DNA of 64,000 nucleotides from an uncultured Flavobacteriaceae bacterium (GCA_963974245.1 CAXBBY010000014.1:5881-69880); one strand, 5' to 3'; positions 2,563 to 12,400 are shown, counted from the first letter of the stretch. Translations and numbers: made by a program. Notes: generated from the letters alone by a model not told the origin.

Positions 2563-2934
2563 ATGAAATTAGAAGTAACCTGTACACGAGTAGAAGCCAA
2601 CCACAAACAATTACAAAACTGTATGGATACATTAGATAAGATGAAATATAGTTTTGAAAAAATAACAAAATTACTATCTATTACTGGAAATGATGTCAGA
2701 TTAAAAATTCTATATCTCTTAAATATAGAAAAAGAACTTTGCCCGTGTGATTTAGCAGATATTTTAAAAATGAGTGTACCGGCAATTTCCCAGCACATTC
2801 GTAAAATTAAAGACGCAGGAATTATTACGGCGAGACGTGATGGCCAAACGCTTTACTATTCATTAAATAATGATGAAACAGCTATTTTAAAGAGTATTTT
2901 TAAGTCAATAAAATTAGAAAGAAAAACAGCCTAA
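2563..2934 (+). CDS. ArsR/SmtB-family metalloregulator
   Basis: RLKILYLL..ELCPCDLADILKMSVPAISQHIRKIKDAGII..RRDGQTLYYSL winged HTH with a CxC site; heads the mer module. Confidence 0.9.
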   Translation: MKLEVTCTRVEANHKQLQNCMDTLDKMKYSFEKITKLLSITGNDVRLKILYLLNIEKELCPCDLADILKMSVPAISQHIRKIKDAGIITARRDGQTLYYSLNNDETAILKSIFKSIKLERKTA

Positions 2935-2945
2935 ATATTAAAATT

Positions 2946-3566
2946 ATGAGTACAGAAAAAACATCGAAAACATCAAAAAATGCAGCTTATACAGGGTTAT
3001 TTGCTGCCGTAGCAGCATCATCCTGCTGTATTCCACCAGTTATTGCATTAATTGCCGGAGTTGGTGGTAGTGCCTCTATGCTATCTTGGATGGAACCTTT
3101 TAGACCTTATCTTATAGGATTGGCAGTGTTGGCGATAGGTTACGCTTGGTATAGTTATTTAAAAACCAAAAAAGCAGATGATTGTTGTGAAGTAGATGCA
3201 AAACCAAAATGGTATCAAACCAAAGGGTTTTTAATTGTGATTACTCTCTTCTCTGCAATTTCAATAGCCTTTCCTTATTATTCATCAATTTTTTATCCAA
3301 ACAATAAAAAAGAAATTACAGTTGTTAAACAATCAAACATTGAAACACTAAATTTTGATGTTAAAGGAATGACTTGCGCCTCTTGTGAATTATCCATTGT
3401 GCATGCGGTAAATGAATTAGGAGGTATTGTTGATGTAGTAGCGTCCTTTGATAAATCAAATACTACCGTAGCGTTTGATAATTCGAAAATTTCTAAGAAA
3501 GACATTGAAAAAGCAATAAATTCAACAGGATATAAAGTGGTTAATAAAGTAAAAAATGAAGACTAA
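2946..3566 (+). CDS. merTP: Mercuric transporter MerT fused to HMA domain (MerTP type)
   Basis: SSCC pair in TM1, DDCC loop pair, 3 TM segments, C-terminal GMTCASC HMA domain. Confidence 0.85.
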   Translation: MSTEKTSKTSKNAAYTGLFAAVAASSCCIPPVIALIAGVGGSASMLSWMEPFRPYLIGLAVLAIGYAWYSYLKTKKADDCCEVDAKPKWYQTKGFLIVITLFSAISIAFPYYSSIFYPNNKKEITVVKQSNIETLNFDVKGMTCASCELSIVHAVNELGGIVDVVASFDKSNTTVAFDNSKISKKDIEKAINSTGYKVVNKVKNED

Positions 3567-5253
3567 AATAATACATCTAAATATTAATGGAATGACCTGT
3601 AGTGGCTGTTCATCTCATATTGAAAAAGATATGAATGCAAAAGAGGGCGTTTTAAGCAGTGCCGTAAACCACGAAACCGGAATTGGGGAATTTATTATCG
3701 ATACCAATAAAATGGATAGGGAAAAATTAATCGATGCAGTAAATAACATTGGCGATTATTCGGTTATCAATGAAGCGGAAAAGAAAATTACTGTTGTTTC
3801 AAATTTGGAGAATACTACTATGAAAGATAGTTCAAACGATAAAAACGATTACGATTTGATTATCGTTGGTGGTGGTTCTGCAGCATTTTCAGCAGCCATA
3901 AAAGCTGAAGGGTTGAGGCTAACAACACTCATGGTAAATGCTGGGTTGGATTTTGGCGGCACCTGTGTGAATGTGGGCTGTGTGCCTTCCAAAAATTTAA
4001 TTCGGGCTGCCGAAACGGTATATCATGCTACGCATTCTAATTTTAAAGGCATCAAACCAAGAGGTGTAGATATTGATTTTAAACAAATCATTAAAGATAA
4101 AAAAGAGTTGGTTTCCGCATTACAGCAACAAAAATATATGGATGTTGTGAGTCATTTTGAAAACCTGACCATGCTAAAAGGTTGGGCAAAATTTGTAGAT
4201 ACAAATACGATTCTTGTGGATGGTAAAGATAAATACAGCGCAACGAACATCATTATAGCAACAGGTGCAACCACCAACATTCCAAACATTGAAGGATTAA
4301 ATAATGTTGGCTACTTAACCAATATATCCTTATTTGATTTGGAAGAAAAACCGGAAAGCCTGACCATTATGGGAGCTGGCTATATTGGCTTGGAAATAGC
4401 CATGGCATACAACCGTTTGGGTGTTAAAGTGCGTATCATTGAATTTACCAATAGATCTTTACGCACTCAAACGAAGGATATTACCGATGTGTTGGAAGTT
4501 CAAATGAAAAGCGAAGGCATTGATTTTTTGCCAAATTTCAGGGCCTTTAAATTTGAAAAAGAAGGCGATAACACGATTATCCATTGCAAATGTCCAGACG
4601 GAACGACAACGCAACTTATTGAAAAAGGCAAGATTTTAGTGGCTACAGGCACCAAACCCAACACGTCTAAATTGGGTCTTGAAAATATTGACTTAAAACG
4701 AACAGAAAGAGGGCATATAGTTGTTAATGAAAAAATGGAAACCAATATTCCCAATATTTATGCTGTCGGGGATGTCGCCAATACACCGGCCTTTGTCTAT
4801 ACGGCTGCAACCGAAGGAAACACAGCAGTAAATAACGCTTTTTCGTTGTCTAAAAGCAGTGTGGATTATTCCTCATTACCCTGGGTGGTTTTTACCGATC
4901 CACAAATTGCAGGAGCAGGCATGGACGAAATAGAAGCAGAAGCAAAAGGGATTCCTTTCGAAGTATCAAAATTAGATTTAATACATGTTCCAAGAGCATT
5001 GGCAGCACAAGACACAAGAGGTTTCATTAAATTGATCCGCAATACTGAAACCGATAAACTAATAGGAGGAAGAGTTATAGCACCAGAAGGAGGCGAACTC
5101 ATTCAACAGCTAAGTATGGCAATTAAATTTGGAATTACTGTAAAAGATTTAGCTGAAAGTTTTTATCCGTATTTAACTTTGAGTGAAGGCATCAAATTAG
5201 CAGCAATTACTTTTGGAAAAGACGTTTCTAAATTGAGTTGTTGTGCAAGCTGA
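3556..5253 (+). CDS. merA: Mercuric reductase
   Basis: N-terminal HMA GMTCSGC, GGGSAA FAD site, GGTCVNVGCVPSK redox centre, C-terminal CC pair (SCCAS). Confidence 0.93.
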   Translation: MKTKIIHLNINGMTCSGCSSHIEKDMNAKEGVLSSAVNHETGIGEFIIDTNKMDREKLIDAVNNIGDYSVINEAEKKITVVSNLENTTMKDSSNDKNDYDLIIVGGGSAAFSAAIKAEGLRLTTLMVNAGLDFGGTCVNVGCVPSKNLIRAAETVYHATHSNFKGIKPRGVDIDFKQIIKDKKELVSALQQQKYMDVVSHFENLTMLKGWAKFVDTNTILVDGKDKYSATNIIIATGATTNIPNIEGLNNVGYLTNISLFDLEEKPESLTIMGAGYIGLEIAMAYNRLGVKVRIIEFTNRSLRTQTKDITDVLEVQMKSEGIDFLPNFRAFKFEKEGDNTIIHCKCPDGTTTQLIEKGKILVATGTKPNTSKLGLENIDLKRTERGHIVVNEKMETNIPNIYAVGDVANTPAFVYTAATEGNTAVNNAFSLSKSSVDYSSLPWVVFTDPQIAGAGMDEIEAEAKGIPFEVSKLDLIHVPRALAAQDTRGFIKLIRNTETDKLIGGRVIAPEGGELIQQLSMAIKFGITVKDLAESFYPYLTLSEGIKLAAITFGKDVSKLSCCAS

Positions 5254-5417
5254 TTTTAAAATAAAGCCTCAAAAAATTACAATTATAAATAATTTGTGAA
5301 TAATGTGTTCTCGAATTAAATTAAAAGTGTCTATTTTTATGATTAAAATGTTATACTGACTACTTAATATTTTAAAAATCTAATTTAAATGGTAAATAAT
5401 TAATTCAATAAAAATCT

Positions 5418-7058
5418 ATGAAAGCATCTGATTTATTTATAAAAGCATTAGAAAACGAAGATGTAGAATACATCTTCGGTATTCCTGGTGAAGAAAATTT
5501 GGATTTTCTTGATTCTATGAAAGATTCTAAAATCAAATTAATTCTTACTCGCCATGAACAAGGTGCTGGTTTTATGGCTGCAACCTATGGTCGCTTAACA
5601 GGAAAGCCAGGAGTTTGTCTTTCTACTTTAGGTCCTGGAGCAACAAATTTAACAACACCTGCAGCTTATGCCCAATTGGGTGCAATGCCAATGATGATGA
5701 TAACAGGACAAAAACCAATTAAGAAATCAAAACAAGGTCGCTTTCAAATTGTAGATATCGTTGAGTTAATGAAACCCATCACAAAATACACAAAACAAAT
5801 TGTAAACGGGAATAACATTGGCTCTTTAGTTAGAGAATCTTTTCGATTAGCAATGGAAGAAAGACCTGGAGCTGTTCACTTAGAACTACCTGAAGATATT
5901 GCGGCAGAAGAATGTGATGATAGAATTTTTGAAGTAGTTGGACATAGAAGGCCAGATGCAGATGAAATGGCAATCCAAGAAGCATCAAAAATGATTGAAA
6001 AAGCAAAAATGCCTTTATTATTAATTGGAGCTGGCGCAAATAGAAAAAGAACAAGTAAAGCCTTACAAGCATTCATAGATAAAACAGGGATTCCTTTTTT
6101 TAATACACAGATGGGTAAAGGAGTGGTTGATGAGCGTCATCCTAAATTTTTAGGAACTGCGGCATTATCAGCAGATGATTTTTTGCACTGTGCAATTGAT
6201 AGAGCAGATTTAATTATTAATGTAGGGCATGATGTAATTGAAAAACCTCCATTTTTCATGGAAGAAGGGGGCACAAAAGTAATTCATATTAATTTCTTTC
6301 CAGCACAAGTAGATACCGTTTATTTTCCACAATTAAATGTGATTGGAGACATTGCGTCTTCGGTAATTCATATTGCAAAACATATTAATAATTATTCTAA
6401 TTGGGATTTATCATATTTTGGAAGAATTAAAGATGAAGTAGAAGAGCATCTTACCAAGTATTCAAAAGATCATCGTTTTCCAATTTTACCACAACGATTG
6501 GTTCATTTAGTTAGAGAAGAATTACCAGAAGATGGAATTATAACTCTAGATAATGGTGTTTATAAAATTTGGTTTGCAAGAAACTACAAATGTTACCAGC
6601 CAAATACGTTGTTGTTAGATAACGCATTAGCAACAATGGGAGCTGGCTTACCTTCTGCAATGTTAGCTAAATTGATTAATCCAACTAAAAAAGTTATTTC
6701 TGTTTGTGGTGATGGTGGATTTATGATGAATTCTCAAGAGTTAGAAACGGCAACTCGCTTAGGTTTAAATATGGTTGTAATCATTTTAAATGATAGTGCT
6801 TACGGAATGATAAAGTGGAAACAAGAAGGAATGGGCTTTGATAATTTTGGATTGGATTACAAAAACCCTGATTTTGTGAAATATGCAGAAAGTTATGGTG
6901 CTATTGGTCACCGACCAACATCTGATGATAATTTTAAAGAAATATTATCAAAATGTTTACATACAGATGGTGTGCATGTGATTGATTTAGCAGTTGATTA
7001 TTCATTGAATCACTCTATTTTAAATGTATTACTAAAAGAGAAAACGTGTATCTTATAA
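5418..7058 (+). CDS. ThDP-dependent enzyme, acetolactate-synthase-large-subunit-like (possible 2-oxoacid decarboxylase)
   Basis: GIPGEENL, TRHEQGAGFMA, STLGPGATN and GDGGFMMN...ND ThDP motif; no small subunit gene follows. Confidence 0.85.
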   Translation: MKASDLFIKALENEDVEYIFGIPGEENLDFLDSMKDSKIKLILTRHEQGAGFMAATYGRLTGKPGVCLSTLGPGATNLTTPAAYAQLGAMPMMMITGQKPIKKSKQGRFQIVDIVELMKPITKYTKQIVNGNNIGSLVRESFRLAMEERPGAVHLELPEDIAAEECDDRIFEVVGHRRPDADEMAIQEASKMIEKAKMPLLLIGAGANRKRTSKALQAFIDKTGIPFFNTQMGKGVVDERHPKFLGTAALSADDFLHCAIDRADLIINVGHDVIEKPPFFMEEGGTKVIHINFFPAQVDTVYFPQLNVIGDIASSVIHIAKHINNYSNWDLSYFGRIKDEVEEHLTKYSKDHRFPILPQRLVHLVREELPEDGIITLDNGVYKIWFARNYKCYQPNTLLLDNALATMGAGLPSAMLAKLINPTKKVISVCGDGGFMMNSQELETATRLGLNMVVIILNDSAYGMIKWKQEGMGFDNFGLDYKNPDFVKYAESYGAIGHRPTSDDNFKEILSKCLHTDGVHVIDLAVDYSLNHSILNVLLKEKTCIL

Positions 7059-7068
7059 AAAATTAAAA

Positions 7069-8454
7069 ATGTTACAGATTACATCACCCTATGATTTAAG
7101 TATTATCAAAGAAATTCCTCTAGTAGGAAAAGTTGAAGTAGAAAAAGCACTTTCAAAAGCTTACTCTTTATTTCAAAATCAAAGTAAATGGATTCCTGCA
7201 CATGAGCGAATTTCCATTTTAAAAAGAACTACATCAATTATGAATTCCAGAATTGATGAGTTAACTAAAACGGCAGCTCAAGAAGGTGGAAAACCGTTAG
7301 TAGATTCTAAAATTGAAGTATTAAGAGCCATCAATGGCGTAGAATTAGCAGCAGAACATATTGGTCAATTAAAAGGAGAACAAATTCCGATGGGATTAAC
7401 AAAAGCCTCTGAAAATCGTTTGGGCTTTACCACTCGTGAACCTATTGGTGTTGTGAGTTCTATAAGCGCTTTTAATCATCCATTAAATTTAATTGTACAT
7501 CAAGTGGTAACTGCAGTTGCTGCTGGTTGTCCTGTAATTGTAAAACCTGCGTTAACTACACCTTTATCTTGCTTGGCTTTAGTAGCTATTTTAAAAGAAG
7601 CTGGTTTGCCTGACGGTTGGTGTCAAGTTATCATTTGCGAAAACGAGACTGCAGAATTATTAGTAACTGATAAACGAATTAATTATTTTTCATTTATTGG
7701 TTCAGCAAAAGTAGGTTGGTATTTAAAATCAAAATTAGCTCCAGGAACAAGGTGTGCTTTAGAACATGGTGGAGCAGCTCCTGTAATTGTAGAAAAAGAT
7801 GCTGACTTTAAAGAAATGATACCAGCACTTTTAAAAGGTGGTTTTTACCATGCAGGACAAGTTTGTGTTTCGGTACAGCGTGTTTTTGTTCATGAATCTA
7901 TTTGCGAAAATGTTGCCAATAAATTAGCAGAAATGGCTAGTAAATTAGTTGTTGGAAATCAAATGGACGAAAAAACAGAAGTAGGACCACTAATTTTACC
8001 AAGAGAAGTAAATAGGGTGGAAGAATGGGTAAACGAAGCTGTAACTGGTGGAGCTAAAGTGTTAACTGGTGGAAAACGAATTTCAGGAACTTGTTATGCC
8101 CCAACCGTTTTGTTAAATCCACCATTAAATGCAAAAGTTTCTAAATTAGAAATTTTTGGTCCTGTGGTTTGTGTTTATTCTTATTTTGATAGAGATAAAG
8201 CAATAAAAATTGCGAATAGTTTAGATGTACATTTTCAAGCTTCCGTATTTACTAAGAATTTAGATGTTGCATTGGATTGTGTTAAAAAATTAAATGCAAC
8301 TGCTGTAATGGTAAATGATCATACTGCTTTTAGAGTAGATTGGATGCCTTTTGGAGGAAGAGATGCATCTGGTTTTGGAATGGGTGGTATTCAATATTCT
8401 ATGCATGAAATGACTAGAGAAAAATTAATGGTTATTAAAAGTGATGTATTATAA
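7069..8454 (+). CDS. Aldehyde dehydrogenase (ALDH21/RL0313-like subgroup)
   Basis: AFNHPLN, FIGSAKVG, LEHGGAAP (catalytic Glu), GQVCVS (catalytic Cys), EIFGP, MPFGG. Confidence 0.9.
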   Translation: MLQITSPYDLSIIKEIPLVGKVEVEKALSKAYSLFQNQSKWIPAHERISILKRTTSIMNSRIDELTKTAAQEGGKPLVDSKIEVLRAINGVELAAEHIGQLKGEQIPMGLTKASENRLGFTTREPIGVVSSISAFNHPLNLIVHQVVTAVAAGCPVIVKPALTTPLSCLALVAILKEAGLPDGWCQVIICENETAELLVTDKRINYFSFIGSAKVGWYLKSKLAPGTRCALEHGGAAPVIVEKDADFKEMIPALLKGGFYHAGQVCVSVQRVFVHESICENVANKLAEMASKLVVGNQMDEKTEVGPLILPREVNRVEEWVNEAVTGGAKVLTGGKRISGTCYAPTVLLNPPLNAKVSKLEIFGPVVCVYSYFDRDKAIKIANSLDVHFQASVFTKNLDVALDCVKKLNATAVMVNDHTAFRVDWMPFGGRDASGFGMGGIQYSMHEMTREKLMVIKSDVL

Positions 8455-8500
8455 ATATAAAAAGTTATTTTCTAAATGATTAATAGCTTTTAAATAAAAC

Positions 8501-8534
8501 AAAAAAGGTTGTCTATATTAGACAACCTTTTTTT
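8501..8534. terminator. Bidirectional intrinsic terminator
   Basis: AAAAAAGGTTGTCTA-TAT-TAGACAACCTTTTTTT perfect hairpin between convergent genes. Confidence 0.9.
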
Positions 8535-8548
8535 ATGAATGGATAATT

Positions 8549-9229
8549 TTATGATTTCAAACTTTCTAACAACTTCTCAGCAACTAATTCTGATGATGCT
8601 GGGTTTTGACCTGTAATTAAATTTCCATCTTGAATAGCATAAGCCGCCCAATCCTCTTTTTTAGAGTAGATTCCGCCATTTTTACTCAACATATCTTCAA
8701 CTAAAAATGGTACGACGTCTGTAAGTCCAACTGCTGCTTCTTCAGTATTTGTAAAACCGGTTACTTTTCTTCCTTTTACTAAAGGTGTACCATCTGCATT
8801 TTTCACATCTTTTAAAGCTGCTGGTGCATGACATACAAAAGAAATTGGTTTCTTTTGACTATTGAATTTTTCAATTAAAGCAATTGAATTTTCGTCATTT
8901 GCTAAATCCCATAAAGGACCATGACCACCTGGATAAAATACAGCATCAAAATCATCTGCATTCATGTCTGCCAATACTTTTGTGTTTGCAATTTTTGCTT
9001 TTGCATCCGCATCTTTATTAAAACGATCTGTAGCTTCTGTTGCTGCATCTGGCGAATCGCTACTTGGGTCAATAGGTGCAGCGCCACCTTTTGGAGTTGC
9101 AATTGTAATTGTTGCTCCTTTATCTAATAAAGTATAATATGGGTTTGCAAATTCTTCAACCCAAAAGCCTGTTTTTTTTCCTGTATCTCCTAATTGATCA
9201 TGAGATGTTACTACAAATAATATATTCAT
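8549..9229 (-). CDS. DJ-1/PfpI (Hsp31-like glyoxalase III) family protein
   Basis: TGFWVEE, PGGHGPLWDL, VCHAP nucleophile elbow, ITGQNPAS. Confidence 0.88.
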   Translation of the reverse strand: MNILFVVTSHDQLGDTGKKTGFWVEEFANPYYTLLDKGATITIATPKGGAAPIDPSSDSPDAATEATDRFNKDADAKAKIANTKVLADMNADDFDAVFYPGGHGPLWDLANDENSIALIEKFNSQKKPISFVCHAPAALKDVKNADGTPLVKGRKVTGFTNTEEAAVGLTDVVPFLVEDMLSKNGGIYSKKEDWAAYAIQDGNLITGQNPASSELVAEKLLESLKS

Positions 9230-9300
9230 TTTTTTTTATTTTAATTTTTGATTATTTCTTCTGAATCTCTTTCAGAAAGTGTTTCTTTTTTTTATCAATT

Positions 9301-10461
9301 TTAGTACGCCATTTTCACAATTTCTTTCACTTTATCTGGTGATAATGATTGATGCTCACCCAAACCTAACCAACCACGATCTGTAAAGCGTTTGGCAATT
9401 TCTTCTGCGGTTCCTTTATATTTTTTTGTGTAATCAGATAATTTTGTATCGATGCCTAATTCGTGGAAAAAAGCAACTGTTTTTTCAATAGCAGCATAGG
9501 CTTTATCATCAATACTTCCTTCGGTGATATTCCATACACGTTCGCCATATTGTGCTAATTTTTCTTTTTTCGCTTCAAAATTATATTTGTAATGACTTGG
9601 AGCAATAATTGCTAAAGTGCGTGCGTGATCTATACCAAATAAGGCAGTCAACTCATGTCCCATAGCATGAACAGCCCAGTCTGTTGGCACTCCTTTTTGT
9701 ATCAAACCATTTAAAGCCATTGTACAACTCCACATAAAATTGGATGCAGCATTATAATCAGAAGGGTCTTTTAAAACCGTAGGAGCAACCTCAATAATTG
9801 TTTGTAAAATACTTTCTGCAAACCGATCCTGCAATAAAGCACCCATCGGATAGGTCATGTATTGTTCTAAAATATGTGTAAAAGAATCAGCCAAACCATT
9901 TGCTAATTGACGTTTAGGAATTGAGGTTATTACCTGAGGATCTAAAATAGAGAACTCAGGAAATAAACCTGACCCACCCATTCCTAATTTTTCTTTGGTT
10001 TCTCTTCTTGTAATTACAGCTCCAGAATTCATTTCAGAACCCGTTGCTGGCAACGTTAACACCGTACCAAAAGGCATTCCTATTTCTGTTCTAATATGTT
10101 TGCTTAAAATATCCCAAGGAATATCGCCTTTAAACAAAGCAGCTGAAGATAAAAACTTAGTTCCATCAATTACAGAACCACCACCAACAGCTAATAAATA
10201 GGTAATGTTTTCGTCTTTTATCACTTTTAAAGCTTTTAATAATACTTCATATTCTGGATTTGCAGGAATTCCTCCAAACTCAATGAAATCAACTTTGGCC
10301 AATGCTGTTTTTACCTGATCGAAAATTCCATTTTTCTTGATGCTTCCGCCACCATAAAGAAGTAATACTTTAGCTTCTTTTGGAATTTCGTTTTCTAATT
10401 TTTCTATCGTGTTCTTTCCAAAAATAATTTTAGTCGGATTTTGAAATTCAAAATTATTCAT
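9301..10461 (-). CDS. Iron-containing NADPH aldehyde reductase (YqhD/BdhA-like)
   Basis: YGGGS, AVGGGSVIDGTK, TLPATGSE, H..GHELTA...HARTL metal ligands. Confidence 0.9.
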   Translation of the reverse strand: MNNFEFQNPTKIIFGKNTIEKLENEIPKEAKVLLLYGGGSIKKNGIFDQVKTALAKVDFIEFGGIPANPEYEVLLKALKVIKDENITYLLAVGGGSVIDGTKFLSSAALFKGDIPWDILSKHIRTEIGMPFGTVLTLPATGSEMNSGAVITRRETKEKLGMGGSGLFPEFSILDPQVITSIPKRQLANGLADSFTHILEQYMTYPMGALLQDRFAESILQTIIEVAPTVLKDPSDYNAASNFMWSCTMALNGLIQKGVPTDWAVHAMGHELTALFGIDHARTLAIIAPSHYKYNFEAKKEKLAQYGERVWNITEGSIDDKAYAAIEKTVAFFHELGIDTKLSDYTKKYKGTAEEIAKRFTDRGWLGLGEHQSLSPDKVKEIVKMAY

Positions 10462-10496
10462 CTTCTTTTTTTGTTTTTAATGTTACACTTCTTTAA

Positions 10497-11129
10497 TTAC
10501 TCAATAACAGTTACTAAATCTTTCATTGGTTTTCTAACTTTCGTTAATTTCACCAACCAATCTTCATCCTCTTTTCTATATCCGATAGGTAATAAAACCG
10601 CACTACGTAATCCTTTTTCGCGCAATCCTAAAATTTCATCTACAGCAGCAGGATCAAAACCTTCTAACGGAGTTGCATCTACACCTTCATAAGCAGCAGC
10701 AATAATTGCTGCTGAAAATGCGATATAAGCTTGTTTTGCAGCATGATTAAAGTTTTCTTCTGCACCTTTTTGAGGATAAATACTTAACAACATCTGACGG
10801 TAATTTTCCCATCCTTCGTTTTTAATTCCACGTATTTCGTTTGTTAAATCAAACATATAGTTAATTCTATCTGCTGTATAGGTATCCCAAGCAGCAAAAA
10901 CGAGTAGGTGAGAGCAGTCTGTAATTACAGATTGGTTCCACGCTACTGGTCTAATTTTTTCTTTAAGCTCTTGATTTTTAATAACCATAATCTCAAAAGG
11001 TTGCAAACCACTTGATGTTGGTGCTAAGCGAGCAGCTTCTAAAATACGTTCAATTTTATCTTCTGCTACTATTTCGCCATTCATTGCTTTTGCAGCATAT
11101 CTCCAGTTTAATTTGTCTAATAATTCCAT
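10497..11129 (-). CDS. Nitroreductase-family flavoprotein (NfsB-like)
   Basis: LNWRYAAKAM, RLAPTSSGLQP, DATPLEGFD. Confidence 0.88.
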   Translation of the reverse strand: MELLDKLNWRYAAKAMNGEIVAEDKIERILEAARLAPTSSGLQPFEIMVIKNQELKEKIRPVAWNQSVITDCSHLLVFAAWDTYTADRINYMFDLTNEIRGIKNEGWENYRQMLLSIYPQKGAEENFNHAAKQAYIAFSAAIIAAAYEGVDATPLEGFDPAAVDEILGLREKGLRSAVLLPIGYRKEDEDWLVKLTKVRKPMKDLVTVIE

Positions 11130-11145
11130 ATTTTTAATATTGTTT

Positions 11146-11814
11146 TTATTTATTGTTTTTTGCTATTTTCTTTATATCATTTGAAGTACTGATTACTTTG
11201 GTATTATTTGTGCTATTCGCTAAATTTAGCATAGCTTGTGCAATCGTTTCTGGATTAATTATTTGATACTCTTTTAATCTTCCTAAAAACAAAGGTTGCG
11301 TCATTTTAAAAAGATCAATCGCTACTTTTTCTAAAAATCGATGTTCTTTACGTTTACCACCAATTAAGGATGGTCTTAAGATAAAGGTGTTTTTAATGTT
11401 TTGTTGTACCACATCATGTTCCATTTCACCTTTTGTTCTATTATAAAATACAGAACTTTTTATATTAGCTCCCATTGCTGATATCACTAAAAAAGTTTTG
11501 ATTTTATTTTCTTTTGAAAGTTGAGCGGCATGAACAGGTATGCCATAATCTATTTGTTTATAAAGTGATTTGTTTGGTGTTTTCTTAGCAGTTGTACCTA
11601 TACAGCAATACACTTCATCCGCTTTAAAAGCTTCTTTAAACTGATTTAAATCTAAAAGATCTCCAATAAATTGTTGCACTTTATTTGGCAAATCATCAAT
11701 TTTTGAACGTGAAAACAATTTAATAGTGCCATACCTTTTATCTTCAATTAATTTTTGAAGTAAAATATTTCCAGTTAAACCTGTTGCTCCTAATATAATG
11801 GCTGTTTTTTTCAT
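11146..11814 (-). CDS. Atypical SDR NAD(P)-binding protein (YraR/TIP30-like)
   Basis: GATGLTG, CCIGTT, DY, YNRTKGEME, RPSLI. Confidence 0.82.
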   Translation of the reverse strand: MKKTAIILGATGLTGNILLQKLIEDKRYGTIKLFSRSKIDDLPNKVQQFIGDLLDLNQFKEAFKADEVYCCIGTTAKKTPNKSLYKQIDYGIPVHAAQLSKENKIKTFLVISAMGANIKSSVFYNRTKGEMEHDVVQQNIKNTFILRPSLIGGKRKEHRFLEKVAIDLFKMTQPLFLGRLKEYQIINPETIAQAMLNLANSTNNTKVISTSNDIKKIAKNNK

Positions 11815-11815
11815 A

Positions 11816-12400
11816 TTATTTACACATTTTTATACTACTCCACGCAGCTTCATACGCTTCCTCTAAATGCGTGTTGTCTAATTTAAAAGCACCTCTTTTT
11901 TCAGACATCATTAAAAATGATAATGGATTTATTGCATACGCATACAATAAGTAATCTGATAAAGGTTTTATTATGCCTTCTCTTTTACCACGAGTCCAAA
12001 GGTCGAGTAGTGGTTGTAAGTGTTTTATTCCTTCCTGTCTGCTATCTTCATCTATAATCGGAGTATTATCACATTGTGCTAAAAACAAAGCATTTTCGCA
12101 TTCTTTTAATTTAAAATCGGCTATACGCTTCCAAATGATTTCAAAACCAGTTTCAACAGACATACTTTCGTTATAAGTTTCAAAAGCAAAGTCTGTGTAG
12201 GCAGATTTTACATCTATATATGTTTTGTTTACCAAATCTTGTTTGTTCTCAAAATATAAATAAATAGTTGCTGGAGAAACGTTCGCCATTTTTGCTATTT
12301 TACTCATAGGAGTTGCATGAAAACCATTATTGTTTACCAACTCAATCGTTGCTTTTATAAGTGCATTCCGTTTATCGATACTTTTTTGAAGTTTTGCCAT
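11816..12400 (-). CDS. TetR/AcrR-family regulator
   Basis: GFHATPMSKIAKMANVSPATIYLYFENKQDL HTH; first gene of a five-gene run. Confidence 0.92.
   Translation of the reverse strand: MAKLQKSIDKRNALIKATIELVNNNGFHATPMSKIAKMANVSPATIYLYFENKQDLVNKTYIDVKSAYTDFAFETYNESMSVETGFEIIWKRIADFKLKECENALFLAQCDNTPIIDEDSRQEGIKHLQPLLDLWTRGKREGIIKPLSDYLLYAYAINPLSFLMMSEKRGAFKLDNTHLEEAYEAAWSSIKMCK

Follow-up and report, generated by a model that had tools for sequence, protein, structure and literature searches.

A candidate 2-oxoglutarate decarboxylase and succinic-semialdehyde dehydrogenase gene pair in a flavobacterium, with relatives fused in a single chain

Introduction

The closest described counterpart of the gene pair considered here is the cyanobacterial bypass formed by OgdA (or KGD) and SsaD, in which 2-oxoglutarate (2-OG) is taken to succinate by way of succinic semialdehyde (SSA), and which is known from Synechococcus PCC 7002 (A2770/A2771), Synechocystis (Sll1981) and Microcystis (MaKGD/MiKGD) (PMC10418658, PMC4224347, PMC7510979). 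The pair lies in a 64,000-nt stretch of DNA from an uncultured Flavobacteriaceae bacterium (the window; positions are counted from its first letter) and consists of a gene for a thiamine diphosphate (ThDP)-dependent enzyme (5418..7058, + strand, 546 aa) followed by one for an aldehyde dehydrogenase (ALDH; 7069..8454, + strand, 461 aa). With the cyanobacterial bypass it shares the family PRK08322, the label "acetolactate synthase", 45% identity and an adjacent ALDH. It differs in that the ThDP-dependent enzyme belongs to a separate subclade, that the ALDH stands downstream and comes from another lineage (28% identity to SsaD), and that the host keeps SucA, SucB and SucC, so that such a route would be accessory here.

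On the dehydrogenase side, the nearest described enzyme is ALDH21 of the moss Physcomitrium (PDB ID: 5mz5), an NADP-dependent SSA dehydrogenase (PMC7823795) of the CDD group cd07147-07149 (PMC12041015). Two further systems invite comparison, namely the catabolic acetolactate synthase AlsS (Bacillus, PDB ID: 4rjj; Klebsiella, PDB ID: 1ozf), which resembles the ThDP-dependent enzyme in fold and in having neither a flavin adenine dinucleotide (FAD) motif nor a small subunit, and the large subunit of biosynthetic acetohydroxyacid synthase (AHAS; IlvB/IlvI), with which it shares the ThDP-enzyme superfamily and the database name. Though the type of pathway is already known from cyanobacteria, both enzymes of the window come from sub-branches for which we found no assay in the literature. 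We propose, with a probability of roughly 0.7, that the pair converts 2-OG to SSA and SSA to succinate as an accessory route, and that its ThDP-dependent enzyme is probably a 2-OG decarboxylase and its ALDH probably a succinic-semialdehyde dehydrogenase (SSADH).

Results

When compared with family models, the ThDP-dependent enzyme scores 884 bits against NCBIfam PRK08322 (NF006187; cut-off 509), and it stays below both AlsS cut-offs (467.6 against 510 and 429.7 against 551.1) and below that of the biosynthetic IlvB model TIGR00118 (382.4 against 538.35). For an assayed reference we built a DNA pattern from published mutagenesis primers (PMC10418658), which recovered 120 loci, those listed being nearly all cyanobacterial and including one from Microcystis aeruginosa NIES-4325 (L068). 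All 15 residues that the paper reports by position are found in the L068 protein, which is therefore MiKGD, a measured 2-OG decarboxylase, and since it scores 877.8 bits on the same model, the PRK08322 name hides at least one proven enzyme of this kind. The window enzyme shares 45% identity with MiKGD, compared to 31-35% for AlsS representatives and 26-30% for IlvB, IlvI, Gcl and AHAS sequences. It carries PGEEN where AlsS has a PGAKI-type motif and NALAT for the NGxQT of AlsS, and the RFDDR motif of the FAD region of AHAS is replaced by HDVIEK. Family cut-offs, motifs and the genome content described below support the view that the enzyme is of neither the Ilv nor the AlsS type, as far as sequence can tell.

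Much of the OgdA active site is kept, including the GEEN motif and the equivalents of MaKGD E50, K386, A408, M410, D435, D462, Y465, K471 and Y531 (here E47, K383, A405, M407, D432, D459, Y462, K468 and Y528). Mutagenesis in MaKGD assigned E50, M410, D435, D462, Y465 and L467 as ThDP/Mg and catalytic residues (PMC10418658); the first five are identical here and L467 is M464, a conservative change. These conserved positions are cofactor residues and say little about the substrate. Docked 2-OG contacts Q254, V382, K386, A408, L467 and K471 of MaKGD (PMC10418658), of which the two lysines and the alanine are retained, whereas S251, N379 and M464 differ. The equivalents of K386 and K471 show no variation across 103 cyanobacterial, 85 window-clade and 71 fused sequences, and neither position is a lysine in the AlsS or AHAS sequences checked.

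Rooted mixture-model trees place the window enzyme in a clade of its own, here the DNGxYK subclade (100/100), separate from the cyanobacterial OgdA clade (100/100), which has DVGAHK and Q254. The two clades group together with AlsS outside, at 98/94 and 97/90, and at 92/94 in a second tree. From these trees the enzyme appears to be a relative of OgdA that stands outside the cyanobacterial OgdA clade. The first-pass annotation, which suggested an OgdA-type decarboxylase and a phylogeny with OgdA, AlsS and IlvB, is borne out as to family, though not as to membership of the cyanobacterial clade; the grouping with OgdA is favoured by the trees, and a placement with AlsS was not rejected (see Discussion). 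The predicted structure (pLDDT 94) has an acetolactate synthase-like fold, with AlsS structures as best matches (TM 0.89-0.95) in a library that gave no OgdA or 13bb match, and a modelled fold of this kind would not discriminate between functions. The closest solved sequence is the recent structure PDB 13bb (519 bits), which has Met at the K383 site and scores 519 bits to the DNGxYK subclade compared to 366 bits to MiKGD; our literature search found no paper on it.

Among solved structures the ALDH is closest to moss ALDH21 (E 8.7e-92), and the window-type clade to which it belongs is sister to ALDH21 (99 SH-like, with limited outgroups; each clade 100 SH-like). No NCBIfam model reached its cut-off, including TIGR01780 and PRK09406 for Sad/SsaD and GabD, and the top-scoring models include lactaldehyde, sulfoacetaldehyde and phosphonoacetaldehyde dehydrogenases. 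The clade may correspond to CDD cd07148 (RL0313-like, uncharacterised), and its signatures are AFNHP, FIGS, LEHGG and FYHAG. The motif quoted in the first-pass annotation was found, beginning at residue 209, and the relation to ALDH21 suggested there stands in the form of best match and sister clade, though the protein is not ALDH21 itself, being 35% identical to the ALDH21-type half of a fern fusion protein.

The catalytic residues C266, E232 and N136 are present, and R86, R422 and Y260 are each invariant in 69 of 69 clade members and align with moss R121, R457 and Y296. In the moss enzyme R121 and R457 presumably bind the SSA carboxylate (the numbering fits the 5mz5 chain minus 18), and roles for all three residues were reportedly given by Kopecna in 2017. 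At the columns of W135, R139 and S419, which bind SSA in SSADHs of the Sad/SsaD or GabD type, the window ALDH has N140, H144 and R422. The cofactor was expected to be NADP, with NADPH as product, yet both markers of that preference are missing. Moss R228, which we take to be the site for the NADP 2'-phosphate, is N192 here, and L162 stands in place of the KPAS serine, which corresponds to Ser157, the residue responsible for the NADP preference of the cyanobacterial SSADH (PMC7510979). Use of NAD alone is not implied by this, because the marker column varies within the clade and is acidic in only 3 of 69 members.

The strongest evidence for a 2-OG and SSA chemistry comes, at the level of sequence, from the partner ALDHs. 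Downstream sequence of 1 kb or more was available for 69 loci of the subclade, and a co-oriented ALDH was found within 1.5 kb in 46 of them (28 window-type, 11 ALDH21-type and 7 Sad/SsaD-type), or, with the loci clustered at 80% identity, in 25 of 38 clusters; as a positive control, SsaD was detected at 81 of 90 cyanobacterial ogdA loci. In Methylobacterium nodulans, a subclade member 58% identical to the window enzyme is paired with a GabD that is 69% identical to that of E. coli. The DNGxYK subclade is thus paired with four ALDH lineages, three of which (ALDH21, Sad/SsaD and GabD) have SSA as a common substrate (PMC7823795, PMC7510979), the fourth being the window type. The earlier suggestion of a decarboxylase feeding the ALDH gains from this, in so far as homologues pair with families of SSA dehydrogenases.

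A search for longer relatives found 73 single-chain fusions of decarboxylase and ALDH, 42 with a window-type and 31 with an ALDH21-type domain. Two of the window-type fusions were checked and are intact single open reading frames (ORFs), each found in several samples. ALDH21-type fusions occur in Ceratopteris, two Riccia species, Calypogeia, Bryopsis, Ostreobium, Coccomyxa, Rhodosorus and Hondaea, and Adiantum and Marchantia have partial fusion gene models. The C-terminal half of the Ceratopteris protein matches moss ALDH21 (E 1.2e-192), and though its gene model covers 141 kb, transcript-derived entries carry the same fusion. Moss ALDH21, as deposited in the PDB, has 515 aa and no ThDP domain, and the search that gave the Adiantum and Marchantia models returned no stand-alone moss ALDH21. 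The fern, liverwort, algal and protist fusions are about 1000-1150 aa long, with a ThDP domain 52-65% identical to the window enzyme (P0342, P0343, P0346, P0353, P0352, P0354, P0358, P0359, P0367, P0376 and P0377). Loose searches of part of the literature turned up no publication that describes ALDH21 fused to a decarboxylase.

After the ALDHs, the neighbour met most often is a stand-alone flavin mononucleotide (FMN) glutamate-synthase-family gene (PF01645), present at 9 of 87 loci and within 260 nt upstream at seven of these; in Leisingera it forms a three-gene run with the decarboxylase. This neighbour, whose function is putative, points to a chemistry of glutamate and 2-OG. The protein may deaminate glutamate, which we offer as a lead only, having found no paper on it. 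A PF01645 neighbour with a hydrophobic N-terminus occurs at L008, L133, L135, L149, L152, L155, L190, L192, L211 and L227, and the host's own PF01645 gene is unlinked to the pair, on another contig (G000:C1:198597-200099). At two loci (L183 and L202) a flavin amine-oxidase-family gene of 644-648 aa follows a decarboxylase that has no adjacent ALDH; the protein is weakly like tryptophan 2-monooxygenase and L-amino acid oxidase, and it could supply a 2-oxoacid. On haloarchaeal plasmids, as in Haloarcula (L267), a PRK08322-like gene overlaps one for a Sad/SsaD-type SSADH; it is 48% identical to MiKGD and nearer to the cyanobacterial type.

The host genome (G000) is 2.58 Mb in size and 99.98% complete. 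The lack of ilvN, ilvC and ilvD first noted around the pair holds genome-wide: IlvD, IlvN, AlsD (PF03306) and a second IlvB-like enzyme were not found in the whole genome, and IlvC gave no convincing candidate, only two weak partial KARI_N matches (E ~1e-5). An acetolactate synthase would thus have no downstream pathway here, and the host, with no IlvB, IlvN, IlvD or convincing IlvC, is probably auxotrophic for branched-chain amino acids; a relative in the genus (G002) possesses a biosynthetic AHAS, unlike the host. SucA, SucB and SucC are all encoded, so the pair cannot fill a gap in the tricarboxylic acid (TCA) cycle, and the bypass first imagined was rejected in that role. Neither KorA nor GabT was found over cut-off in the host genome, and with no GabT at that level, service as the SSADH of a gamma-aminobutyric acid (GABA) shunt is unlikely. 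The four other host ALDHs included in the tree all lie outside the Sad/SsaD clade.

Within the window, the two ORFs lie on the same strand with a gap of exactly 10 nt, which confirms the two-gene arrangement described earlier. Upstream and in the same orientation is a mercury resistance operon, arsR-merTP-merA (2563..5253, + strand), with an ArsR/SmtB regulator, merTP and merA over the cut-offs of NCBIfam NF033788, NF033556 and TIGR02053. It is followed by an AT-rich spacer of 164 nt (5254..5417, + strand) between merA and the ThDP gene, within which no terminator-like site was called and no perfect TAnnTTTG box was found; transcription could possibly read through from the mer operon into the pair. 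Downstream lies a bidirectional intrinsic terminator (8501..8533), a hairpin with a perfect 15-bp stem, a 3-nt loop and T-tails on both strands (-17.3 kcal/mol; z -5.6 compared to shuffles), which also serves a convergent DJ-1/PfpI gene. The terminator had been taken to belong to the pair, but in a close relative (G093) merA runs straight into the same hairpin, with two bases changed and no pair in between, so it is not specific to the pair.

The blastn blocks with G093 stop at 5246 and restart at 8487, with flanks 89-90% identical, and leave a 3.24-kb segment (5254..8486) that is present here and not at the same site in G093. The ThDP gene was detected in a single one of 24 further genomes from the genus and in 6 of 300 from the phylum, the ALDH gene in none of 120 further genus genomes, and the pair is a patchy accessory cassette. 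This rarity in the genus favours gain of the segment rather than loss, and the pair was probably acquired horizontally. Its GC content is similar to that of the host, named homologues at about 90% identity are from other flavobacteria, and a search for terminal and target-site repeats next to the segment turned up nothing convincing. Homologues at 87-88% (P0085, P0115 and P0120) are assigned to KSB1 and Marinimicrobia genomes, which suggests either recent transfer between phyla or binning errors.

The merA protein (3556-5253) is 79% identical to that of the close relative, though the flanking genes are 94% identical; L266 and L134 were compared. It is 82% identical to the merA of L134, which shares the gene order merT-merA-ThDP-ALDH, and replacement of the mer genes may have accompanied the arrival of the pair. 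In L134 the ALDH gene is followed by a further 3' fragment of merA (6806-7318), so that a merA repeat flanks the pair there, as expected for integration by homologous recombination. By inspection, 8549-12400 (both strands) holds a redox housekeeping block of DJ-1/PfpI, an iron-type alcohol dehydrogenase, a nitroreductase, an NAD-binding protein and TetR, and 2-1963 resembles a xanthine dehydrogenase molybdopterin subunit.

Discussion

In the proposed route, the first protein would act as a ThDP/Mg-dependent, FAD-independent 2-OG decarboxylase that releases SSA and CO2: ThDP would attack C2 of 2-OG, CO2 would leave, and protonation would free SSA. The ALDH, taken to be non-acylating, would oxidise SSA to succinate with NAD+ or NADP+, with the C266/E232 pair performing the oxidation and R86 and R422 holding the SSA carboxylate. 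The route would skip 2-oxoglutarate dehydrogenase (OGDH) and succinyl-CoA ligase, needing neither CoA nor lipoate and forgoing substrate-level ATP/GTP, and might serve as an optional overflow for 2-OG, for instance from glutamate catabolism, in a host living on imported amino acids. From the position behind merA one might speculate that the pair is used when the thiol-dependent OGDH is poisoned; this stays a speculation because linkage to mer was seen at only one other locus.

Several observations weigh against this assignment. Compared to OgdA, the whole clade has four changed residues in the pocket (Q254 to S251, V382 to N379, H385 to Y382 and L467 to M464), K386 and K471 were placed on 2-OG by docking, without mutation (PMC10418658), and the literature searched gave no enzyme assay for any member of the DNGxYK subclade. 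The approximately unbiased (AU) test does not reject a grouping of the window clade with AlsS (p 0.062), FastTree without an outgroup puts AlsS among the PRK08322 branches with weak support and no clean separation, and 13bb bears the name "acetolactate synthase", given by its depositors. The window-type ALDH has invariant residues of its own (H137, H233 and H261) along with its low identity to the fern half, 23 of the 69 loci have no adjacent ALDH, and the host has no TCA gap at the step from 2-OG to succinate.

The altered pocket would suit the same architecture acting on a different acidic 2-oxoacid, which we regard as unlikely: for example 2-oxoadipate, giving glutarate semialdehyde and then glutarate in lysine or tryptophan catabolism, or oxaloacetate, sulfopyruvate or phosphonopyruvate, giving the matching acid. 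What the two arginines indicate is any anionic aldehyde, the best-scoring NCBIfam models for the ALDH include ones for other such aldehydes, E. coli GabD oxidises glutarate semialdehyde too, and the host has, by inspection, ALDH7-like and 2-aminomuconate-semialdehyde-like ALDHs, consistent with formation of 2-oxoadipate. However, this one subclade is repeatedly accompanied by ALDH21 and SsaD partners, which are both reported to be SSA dehydrogenases, and its second commonest neighbour is glutamate-synthase-like; the recurrent neighbours, part of which were annotated, include none identified as lysine, sulfonate or phosphonate genes. In addition, assayed KGDs were strict for 2-OG among the acids tested, a set that did not include 2-oxoadipate (PMC10418658).

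The AU result, the name of 13bb and the AlsS fold matches would all be expected of an FAD-independent, AlsS-like catabolic acetolactate synthase acting on pyruvate, in which case the ALDH would remove acetaldehyde or some other by-product. We hold this to be very improbable given the scores under both AlsS cut-offs, the PGEEN and NALAT motifs, the lack of AlsD, IlvD and IlvN in the genome, and the absence of alsD from the recurrent neighbours identified; MaKGD also gave no aldehyde from pyruvate, acetolactate lying outside that test (PMC10418658). There is equally little to recommend a ThDP-dependent enzyme whose main activity is carboligation, with 2-OG or some other donor (compare mycobacterial Kgd and MenD), with the ALDH as a general aldehyde scavenger in a cassette for metal or redox stress. 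The fold is that of carboligating enzymes, and the neighbours of the pair include merA upstream in the window and at L134, a glutathione-reductase-like gene at L148 and metal genes in Aurantiacibacter, but most loci have no stress genes among their recurrent neighbours, and the 73 fusions together with the invariant anion-binding arginines argue for the hand-over of one specific acidic aldehyde.

If the conversion of 2-OG to succinate is accepted for the pair, its importance for the window itself is modest, as the type of pathway is known and the cassette is patchy and accessory. For the family, we lean slightly towards the view that the DNGxYK subclade is a second widespread OgdA-type lineage, outside the cyanobacteria, which in eukaryotes (ferns, liverworts, algae of the streptophyte, green and red lineages, and some protists) is fused to an ALDH21-type domain as a bifunctional enzyme, and that the window ALDH represents a further, unnamed SSADH family. 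At least 8000 sequence clusters match the ThDP enzyme query, not all of them from the DNGxYK subclade, and if this view is true, many 2-OG decarboxylases would be hidden behind the label "acetolactate synthase large subunit", which thousands of genes carry, and metabolic models that credit such hosts with a step of branched-chain amino acid synthesis would change. The present host illustrates the labelling problem, its sole "acetolactate synthase" being found in an organism without an Ilv pathway. Of the leads, the fusions in plants and algae interest us most. If the view holds, one polypeptide from a fern, a liverwort or a bacterium should turn 2-OG into succinate, and the ALDH21-type activity of the fused lineages would serve an OGDH-independent route from 2-OG to succinate, beyond the GABA shunt.

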